Shown here: in pieces, positions 2 to 1,606 of the stretch | Layout: each line of letters begins with the position of its first letter | Position numbering within the stretch: the first letter of the stretch is position 1 | DNA from: a virus | Taxonomy: Duplodnaviria; Caudoviricetes | Reading direction: 5' to 3' (one strand) | Virus record (IMG/VR): IMGVR_UViG_3300005573_000075 | Location: 25,781-89,780 of that record | DNA length: 64,000 nt | Made by a program: the position numbers and the translations under genes | The notes under the pieces: generated by a model | Told to the model about the DNA's origin: nothing | The model's input: the letters and a program-made list of their open reading frames with translations, nothing else | Database searches by the model: none

Positions 2-328
2 AGAATACAATGGTTAAATATTGCAAAAAAAGATAAAATAAAACAAGAAGATAGTATTATATGGATATATCCTTCTTATGTAGTAGAAGTGGAAAGTATG
101 GGTATTAATTCAAGAGAAACAGAAGTATATGATACAGGTTTGAATTTTATTAAAAAGGATATAGGATATATATTAAGGCAGCCAAGATTTAAACAAATTA
201 GAGAAGATAAATCACCTTTAAATAAAGAAGATGTAAGAATTTCACAAGTACCAGGGTATAAATATAGTACATTAAAATCTACTTTAATTAAAAATTCTTT
301 TTGGATAAAATATTCAAAAGAAAGATGA
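2..328 (+). CDS. ATP-dependent DNA ligase, C-terminal OB-fold fragment (5' end lies outside the window)
   Basis: Frame is open from nt 2; the ORF track only starts at 89. Translation RIQWLNIAKKD...IWIYPSYVVEVES...YILRQPRFKQIREDKSP matches the ligase OB-domain signature W-x-x-P-x-x-VVEV ... LR-x-PRF-x-x-x-R-x-DK. Confidence 0.8.
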   Translation, partial: RIQWLNIAKKDKIKQEDSIIWIYPSYVVEVESMGINSRETEVYDTGLNFIKKDIGYILRQPRFKQIREDKSPLNKEDVRISQVPGYKYSTLKSTLIKNSFWIKYSKER

Positions 329-455
329 TTTTTAATAGATGAAAATACTGCTATTTTAATAAAGAATAAAGGTGTAAATATTCCTTATAATTATAAATTA
401 AACTCCTTCTAAAACCCACGGTTTTAACCGTGGGATACAGAAGGGTAAAAAATAA

Positions 456-480
456 ATGACAATGAAGGGTATATATAATA
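456..480 (+). promoter_or_regulatory. Phage-type promoter-like motif upstream of tnpB copy 1
   Basis: ATGACA-ATGAAGGGTATA-TATAAT with a 12-nt spacer, ending 4 nt before the ATG; same motif at 3819, 33532, 61682 and 61445 (-). Confidence 0.6.
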
Positions 481-483
481 GAT

Positions 484-1581
484 ATGGTAAGATTAACCTA
501 TTATTGTAATTTAAAAGGTAATAAAGAGAAACTAGCGTTTCTGGAACAGCAATATAAATATGCTCAAATAATAGCTAGGTATTACCTTTGGTATATCAAA
601 TCAACTAAAGAGTATAGGAAATCAGAAATACATAAAGTTACATATGAAAAAATAAGAACTAAGTATCCATTTCTGTATTCTAAATTAATACAACATATAA
701 GGAATAAAGTGTTAGCTTCAGTAAAAGCTAAAAAACTCTATAAAGTCAAAAAATTAAATATTCCTCTAATTTTTGATTATCAAAATTTTGATATAGGATT
801 TAAAGAAGGTTACTATAATGCATGGATAAGATTGTGTAAAAATAATTATCCATTAGAAGGTTTAAGAACGATTAATAAGTTAAAAGAAGTAGTAAGTATA
901 AAAGAGATTCAAATAAAAAAGATAAACAATGCATGGAGAATATACTTCATATGTGAGGTAAAAGAAAACAATAATGTTAAAGGAAATCAGAGGTTAGGTA
1001 TAGATATCAACATAAAAAATATAACCCTTTCAAATAATAAAAGATTCAATCTAAAACAATATGTTCATAAAAAAATAGAATACAGAAAGCATAAACAAAA
1101 GGATAAAATAGTAAGATACTCTAAAGATTTCTTCCATAAGTTGACTTCTGAGTTGGTTAAGTATCTAATAGAAATGGGAGGTTCTCAAATTATATTAGAG
1201 AATCTAACTAATATTAGGAAGTCAAGTTCTAGAAAAGAAGGAACATCTAAAGGGAAAAATGTAAATTACTTAATCAATAATGTATTTCTGTATAAGATGT
1301 TTCAAGAGTTTCTAGAGTATAAATGTAAGTTAAATGGGATAGAAGTTAAATATATCAATCCAAGGAATACTAGTAAGACTTGTGAATGTGGATCCATGGA
1401 TACTAATAGACCTAAACAAAGTCTATTAATATGTAATACTTGTGGAAGAAGATTAAACGCAGATTTAAATGGAGCTAAAAACATCTTGAAGTTTTCACTT
1501 CAAGATGGGTCGCCGAGTCGTTCCGACCCGTCTGAACTCCTTAAACAAAACAGACAAGCCCTCGGCTTTAGCCGTGGGTAG
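484..1581 (+). CDS. tnpB: TnpB RNA-guided endonuclease (RuvC + zinc finger)
   Basis: RuvC acidic residues intact (LGIDIN, ILENL, NADLNGAKNI); TSKTC..CG..CxxCG zinc finger; located inside IS ends. Confidence 0.93.
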   Translation: MVRLTYYCNLKGNKEKLAFLEQQYKYAQIIARYYLWYIKSTKEYRKSEIHKVTYEKIRTKYPFLYSKLIQHIRNKVLASVKAKKLYKVKKLNIPLIFDYQNFDIGFKEGYYNAWIRLCKNNYPLEGLRTINKLKEVVSIKEIQIKKINNAWRIYFICEVKENNNVKGNQRLGIDINIKNITLSNNKRFNLKQYVHKKIEYRKHKQKDKIVRYSKDFFHKLTSELVKYLIEMGGSQIILENLTNIRKSSSRKEGTSKGKNVNYLINNVFLYKMFQEFLEYKCKLNGIEVKYINPRNTSKTCECGSMDTNRPKQSLLICNTCGRRLNADLNGAKNILKFSLQDGSPSRSDPSELLKQNRQALGFSRG

Positions 1582-1606
1582 ATGACTTTAAGCATAAATC
1601 AATGTG
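1490..1606 (+). ncRNA. Putative TnpB omega/reRNA 3' scaffold plus flank-derived guide (guide starts at 1587, TTTAAGCATAAATCAATGTG)
   Basis: Stem GATGGGTCG/CGACCCGTC and the terminal hairpin are conserved in both IS copies; TnpB guides are known to extend past the right end. The 5' boundary is uncertain. Confidence 0.6.

Follow-up and report, generated by a model that had tools for sequence, protein, structure and literature searches.

A tnpB insertion sequence and a TGA codon between a DNA ligase and a LigD-type polymerase in an uncultured phage: probable fission of a fused gene

At the left end of the window (the whole stretch of 64,000 nucleotides analysed here), an ATP-dependent DNA ligase gene closes with a TGA, an insertion sequence (IS) carrying tnpB follows, and a LigD-type primase-polymerase gene begins directly behind it (Table 1). 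Are these two neighbouring genes between which an element happened to settle, or the halves of a single LIG-POL gene that has come apart? Pseudomonas-type LigD reportedly has the domain order LIG then POL (PE-LIG-POL in P. aeruginosa). An earlier note on this DNA had proposed that removing the IS rejoins the two frames with a single TGA between them, that the ancestral gene encoded a LIG-POL polyprotein, and that the TGA is a later nonsense change, a read-through site or a real stop followed by chance continuity. The window comprises bases 25781-89780 of an 89.8-kb virus record of 31% GC, rated complete by CheckV; its start falls inside the ligase gene, the whole of which spans 25026-26108 of the genome (L001:5026-6108) and encodes 360 aa. 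At the very end of the record, ATTAT-type short tandem repeats (window 63900-63990) lie beside a GC-richer stretch (63100-63850).

Table 1. Positions of the features at the ligase-polymerase junction and of the related elements; window coordinates unless marked as genome.
Feature	Position	Strand	Remarks
ATP-dependent DNA ligase, 3' end	2..328	+	Pfam PF04679 on the part in the window
TGA stop of the ligase, next base T	326..328	+	in the inter-domain linker, outside conserved blocks
Linker remnant, part 1: 22 stop-free codons (FLIDEN...IPYNY) in ligase frame	329..394	+	ends in the TTAT target, 391-394
IS copy 1, tnpB-only IS200/IS605-type, 1192 bp	395..1586 (genome 26175-27366)	+	ends fixed from five elements
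LE hairpin of IS copy 1	415-434		CCCACGG/CCGTGGG
tnpB of IS copy 1, 365 aa	484-1581		Cas12f1-like_TNB (PF07282), 1.6e-20, above cut-off
RE hairpin of IS copy 1	1559-1578		RE tail TAGATGAC
Linker remnant, part 2: 5 codons (FKHKS) in frame with ATG 1602	1587..1601	+	also flank of the IS right end
ORF 1602, 854 aa	1602..4166	+	Pfam PF21686, 34.7 bits (cut-off 27.4)
IS copy 2	61572..62816 (genome 87352-88596)	+	same ends; ~92% identity to copy 1
Third full IS copy	genome 5370-6607		outside the window
Mini-element, ~45 nt	genome 513-560		outside the window; directly after TTAT
Mini-element, ~45 nt	~57680-57725		directly after TTAT

The identity of the two enzymes is well marked. In the full-length ligase both the nucleotidyltransferase and the OB domain are recognised (PF01068 and PF04679), the catalytic motif KxDG is present as KVDG, and the last conserved block, VRISQVPGY, ends ~22 codons ahead of the stop. 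The LigD-type primase-polymerase domain of ORF 1602 occupies ~1686-2351 (residues ~30 to 250), carries the DxD (IDLDP), GGRG and STLH motifs and keeps 13 of the 13 invariant columns of alignment A4, D97 and D99 included. Further along the same ORF, five tandem repeats of 96 nt (32 aa; consensus KDIKEIPEII.QGIAQ.S..SYYFA.LLI.QG) fill 3079-3686, and a C-terminal part follows. A 61-nt direct repeat of 92% identity (1612-1672 and 3742-3802) flanks this Pol-plus-repeat module in frame. The motif [KN]-S-[FM]-W recurs four times at module borders (296-322, 1596-1607, 1656-1673 and 3786-3803): as KNSFWIKYS at the ligase end, as KSMW across ATG 1602, and twice as KKSMWV, both of these copies lying within the 61-nt repeat.

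Any statement about the state before insertion depends on the exact ends of the element, which were set by BLAST of copy 1 against the whole record. This returned three full copies and two mini-elements; all five are directly preceded by TTAT and open with AAATTAAAC, while the three full copies and one mini-element share the right end GGGTAGATGAC/T, and beyond the ends the flanks are unrelated. Copy 1 sits 3' of its TTAT with flanks that are not duplicated, and terminal inverted repeats are absent, AAATTAAAC... and ...GGGTAGATGAC not being inverted copies of one another. The LE region folds strongly (z = -5.0) and the RE region less so (z = -2.1); in the mini-element at genome 513-560 the LE hairpin passes directly into the RE tail. 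The motifs GIDIN, ILENL, NADLNGA and CxxC...CxxC are readable in the TnpB ORF; its match to OrfB_IS605 (PF01385) is weak (22.7 bits against a cut-off of 30.5), and one member of its 90% cluster is called 'IS605 OrfB family transposase' by its source.

In all these respects the element resembles the tnpB-only IS200/IS605 elements (IS1341-like group): location 3' of a fixed tetranucleotide (here TTAT) with no target duplication, as also in PATEs; subterminal hairpins at both ends; and a TnpB with a readable RuvC-like DED triad and zinc finger. It differs in residing in a virus genome, within the linker of a multidomain gene, and in that the phage record lacks a Y1 (HUH) TnpA: no PF01797 match occurs in the whole 89.8 kb, control genomes being positive. 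The elements are therefore non-autonomous and their mobility requires a helper in trans. Since the three intact tnpB copies differ pairwise by ~5-9%, they are not very recent duplicates. The mini-elements, built from the two ends like PATEs, resemble that type and demonstrate past activity of this element family in the phage. An Rfam scan of positions 1-2000 gave no intron, omega-RNA family or other RNA apart from two sRNA hits below threshold at the LE hairpin, and so lends no support to an IStron-type spliced element. The ligase-linker-Pol region offers 147 TTAT sites (63 on the plus and 84 on the minus strand), of which two plus-strand sites lie within the 81-nt linker, and the surviving insertion in the linker fits a persistence limited to insertions that spare the domains.

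With the ends fixed from five elements, deletion of 395-1586 yields ...NY|FKHKS-MWGD... (...AAT TAT | TTT AAG CAT AAA TCA ATG), a join whose length is divisible by three and which brings the ligase frame into phase with ATG 1602. The sole stop is the TGA at 326-328, and 27 stop-free codons follow up to ATG 1602, so that the continuity claimed earlier is borne out. How easily could it arise by accident? Shuffles with the base or dinucleotide composition of the spacer stay stop-free over 27 codons in 0.03-0.04 of trials, and a further factor of one third applies for the phase with ATG 1602. Moreover, the spacer has a codon-usage log-odds of 16.4, a value reached by 0.004-0.006 of the stop-free shuffles, placed at the 63rd percentile of genuine in-frame 27-codon windows of the phage genes, and exceeding 644 of 644 stop-free off-frame windows and 93% of the stop-free windows from the unannotated remainder of the genome. 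The spacer thus looks like recently translated sequence; and as it holds no in-frame ATG, GTG or TTG, its translation could only have come from ribosomes that had already read the ligase. It contains neither a promoter nor a terminator match, and its folding is unremarkable. The continuity between the ligase and ORF 1602 exceeds what chance would provide, and a coincidence is unlikely.

As noted earlier, ATG 1602 has no good Shine-Dalgarno (SD) sequence: its anti-SD duplex energy is +0.4 kcal/mol, the median over the genome being -6.55. In this it is not alone, as the ligase start is SD-less too. Today the stop of tnpB (TAG, 1579-1581) lies 20 nt upstream of this ATG, and in the IS-free state the ATG would stand 81 nt past the ligase stop, while elsewhere in the phage gene junctions are tight or SD-led.

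The TGA itself looks like an ordinary stop. It terminates 31 of the 82 ORFs of at least 120 aa in the genome, and such ORFs span 90% of the genome under table 11 (the standard code); on these grounds recoding of TGA as Trp or Gly was rejected. Against the LIG-POL reading, three of the 31 TGA-ended ORFs are followed by at least 27 open codons. At window 28526-32431, a 593-aa ORF ending in TGA is followed three codons on, in the same frame, by a 704-aa ORF; with a GAGGT Shine-Dalgarno between the two, that junction looks like an ordinary gene border. Among the three options listed by the earlier note for the ligase TGA, a later nonsense change fits best, read-through finds no support, and chance continuity is, as said, unlikely.

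What, then, do the relatives of these two modules look like? An exhaustive Pol search returned 320 homologues of highly varied architectures. Among ~150 retrieved Pol homologues scored with the phage's own ligase, ~24 carry LIG upstream of POL in one ORF and two have the reverse order. A single syntenic IS-free relative was found (L005, 33% GC), and it bears the best Pol match, P0011. Its flanking genes run in the same order as here: 118 aa (50% identity) and 160 aa (44%) upstream, and 254 aa (44%), 142 aa (39%) and the next gene downstream. In it, LIG and POL form one uninterrupted ORF of 699 aa with a linker of ~20 residues, and in a maximum-likelihood tree of 71 Pol domains (quick search) the phage Pol is sister to P0011 with an SH-aLRT of 89. 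Fused LIG-POL genes are also found in L019 (P0007) and L021 (P0029), as well as in L020, where a 940-aa ORF (P0005) holds DUF5662 and EncFtn-like modules between the two enzymes. The inspection of IS-free loci called for by the earlier note therefore speaks for its reading: the syntenic one is a single ORF and L020 is fused too. The opposite pattern, in which all IS-free relatives would have a stop here and a separate, SD-led POL gene, is not seen, some distant relatives being split.

The ligase is 38-43% identical to its counterparts in the fused P0005, P0007 and P0011; five multidomain proteins lie in that range, and among homologues as long as a stand-alone ligase none above 28% identity was found. 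An in-frame stop at the LIG/POL junction occurs in none of the relatives examined, which are either fused without a stop or split in other frames. Database labels of the kind 'POL-only, short N-terminus' proved unreliable and were not counted as split genes, P0065 being a contig-end fragment. Against an ancestral fusion, it should be noted that the domain architecture of the family is very labile, with 32 changes among the 70 labelled rows of the Pol tree. Since the best Pol and ligase homologues are only ~40-44% identical, the best IS-free relative included, the ancestral state is read over a long distance.

A close IS-free relative was absent from the databases searched. Neither the ligase nor the Pol gave a tblastn match in 50,697 deposited phage genomes, and single-protein scans of IMG/VR, a scan with the syntenic 254-aa neighbour and a scan of GTDB genome contigs returned nothing. 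Scanning with a 4-sequence Pol alignment gave only three distant IMG/VR loci and ten metagenome loci, none of them syntenic.

Two further loci deserve mention in their own right. L020 is a 95-kb phage contig (Ga0123519_10000235, JGI 3300009503) from a metagenome shared with one assembly of the present phage; proteins 86-91% identical to those of window ~35000-37000 stand in it directly upstream of the fused LIG-DUF5662-EncFtn-POL gene, a layout that indicates mosaic rearrangement between co-occurring phages. In L015:1-1188, a metagenome contig of 22% GC, the Pol domain is cut by a free-standing ORF of 255 aa (167-934) with an endonuclease-like FGDYWHG segment, and the C-terminal half of Pol restarts at its own ATG; no Rfam intron matches this split, a further case in this Pol family of a gene cut in two by a mobile element.

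Four other contigs of the phage (L004, L023, L024 and L025), from three further datasets (ENA ERZ27247228, JGI 3300009503 and JGI 3300002182), all carry the IS and are 100% identical to the present record over the covered parts of the ligase end, the TGA, the TTAT/LE junction and the RE/ATG 1602 junction; the TGA is identical in L023, L024 and L025. An assembly or sequencing artefact, whether of the stop or of the insertion, is practically negligible in view of this identity across three metagenome datasets, and no point in its favour was found. No variant turned up in the 90%-identity clusters of the ligase and Pol proteins, and neither a TGG allele nor an IS-free allele occurs among the recorded assemblies: TGA and IS are both fixed in the sampled population.

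From these observations, the explanation that I regard as probable, on balance, is that a fused LIG-linker-POL gene recently underwent fission through two events in its linker, a nonsense change and the insertion of the IS. The fused syntenic relative, the sister position of its Pol and the coding-like spacer all lend support to the LIG-POL polyprotein postulated as the ancestor. In that recent ancestor, ligase and LigD-type primase-polymerase would have been modules of one ORF, as they are in L005. One lesion would be a change from a sense codon to TGA directly after the ligase module, the other the insertion of the 1192-bp IS 3' of TTAT, 66 nt past the TGA; either alone would suffice to split the gene, and if the IS came first, the TGA would just have trimmed a useless tail of 27 residues. 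The ligase would now be the 360-aa protein ending at the TGA, and Pol would need a start of its own, for which ATG 1602 is the likeliest candidate (ATG 1632 and 1662 being the alternatives). Because ATG 1602 is SD-less and closely follows the tnpB stop, its translation may plausibly rely on ribosomes that re-initiate after completing tnpB. The youth of the split would explain why the 81-nt remnant is still open, in phase and coding-like. The direction of change would be fission in this phage and not fusion in the relatives.

As for the fate of the insertion, the right-end flank of a TnpB element reportedly serves as its omega-RNA guide. For copy 1, such a guide would match TTAT plus the flank from 1587, that is, the empty site; TnpB with this guide would presumably cut the IS-free allele and so help to keep the insertion fixed.

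The strongest rival holds that LIG and POL were always two adjacent genes, that the IS hit either a short gap between the two or the beginning of a Pol coding sequence whose start has since decayed (for example, an ATG that is now the ATA at 335-337), and that the continuity is coincidental. It is possible, if rather unlikely. Separate genes do occur in more distant relatives, with an ATGA overlap in L002, other ORFs in between in L013 and L016, and three small genes in between on the contig of P0012; TGA is a normal stop in this genome; and SD-less starts are found elsewhere, as in the ligase. The ATA at 335-337 differs from ATG by a single base, so that losing a start would take no more mutations than gaining a stop. 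The phage linker, about four times longer, shows no homology by alignment to the linkers of nine fused relatives, and since it is not alignable to them, homology cannot prove that the spacer was translated. Pure chance, however, would have to deliver a spacer at once in phase, stop-free and gene-like, a combination whose probability is around 1e-4; under a lost start, the sole start codon would have mutated and yet no stop would have arisen in 27 codons. Besides, the relative that is both sister and syntenic is fused, and no stand-alone ligase of the clade was found.

Could the TGA be a programmed leaky stop, the IS-free allele making both the ligase and a LIG-POL read-through fusion? The in-frame continuity and coding-like spacer after the stop, and a downstream ORF without SD, are what such a design would show; all the same, it is improbable. 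The T that follows the TGA argues against it, UGA-U being an efficient termination context in E. coli, and no stable structure lies downstream, the 90 nt after the stop in the IS-free join folding like their shuffles (z = -0.33). An in-frame stop at the junction is missing from every relative examined, and the genome uses the standard code (90% coverage under table 11). In the present genome, read-through would add just a tail of 27 residues (the 22 linker codons plus KLNSF from the IS); the IS thus makes it pointless today, and yet the IS is fixed in all assemblies. A compound scheme, distinctly improbable, would have a partly read-through, regulated TGA set the ratio of free ligase to LIG-POL in the IS-free allele, the IS now driving Pol via tnpB-coupled initiation and its TnpB guide destroying IS-free or competitor alleles; if it were true, the element would have become, though selfish, a built-in component of the end-joining gene.

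The locus can be set beside several known systems. Like the LigD of P. aeruginosa, the phage encodes an ATP-dependent ligase and then an AEP-type primase-polymerase (Pfam LigD_Prim-Pol above the curated cut-off), with KxDG and DxD present. Unlike bacterial LigD, the phage version adjoins head genes, its similarity to cellular LigD is at the Pfam level only, and its Pol ORF has 600 further residues with the 32-aa tandem repeats; nor are LIG and POL on one polypeptide here, being parted by the TGA and the 1192-bp IS, whereas a single polypeptide is found in P0011, P0007, P0029 and P0005. With these fused phage proteins (of L005, L019, L021 and L020, respectively) the two enzymes share the ligase clade (38-43%), the Pol clade (35-44%) and the order, and with L005 the flanking genes as well; theirs, however, are single ORFs with linkers of 15-30 residues (plus the DUF5662/EncFtn modules of P0005), in contrast to a linker region of ~80 codons broken by the TGA and a 1.2-kb IS. 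Phage genes split by mobile elements such as homing endonucleases, whose two halves are then translated separately, offer a further parallel, also seen in L015, the two pieces being parted at a tolerated point, but here the element is a tnpB IS and the cut falls between domains rather than within one.

Gene fission by an IS or a nonsense change, as well as fused and split LigD architectures, are already known kinds of event; the present case is a well-preserved instance in an uncultured phage, and neither a new decoding mechanism nor a new class of system. On the preferred reading, it is a clean case, found in nature, of a multidomain phage repair enzyme falling apart, with the break in the linker, the catalytic modules intact and the scar still readable. 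A split of this IS/TGA type helps to explain the many architectures in which the ligase/PrimPol family is met in metagenomes. The locus also puts an apparently intact TnpB nuclease gene in a virus; the target predicted for this nuclease is the phage's own end-joining gene in its unsplit form.
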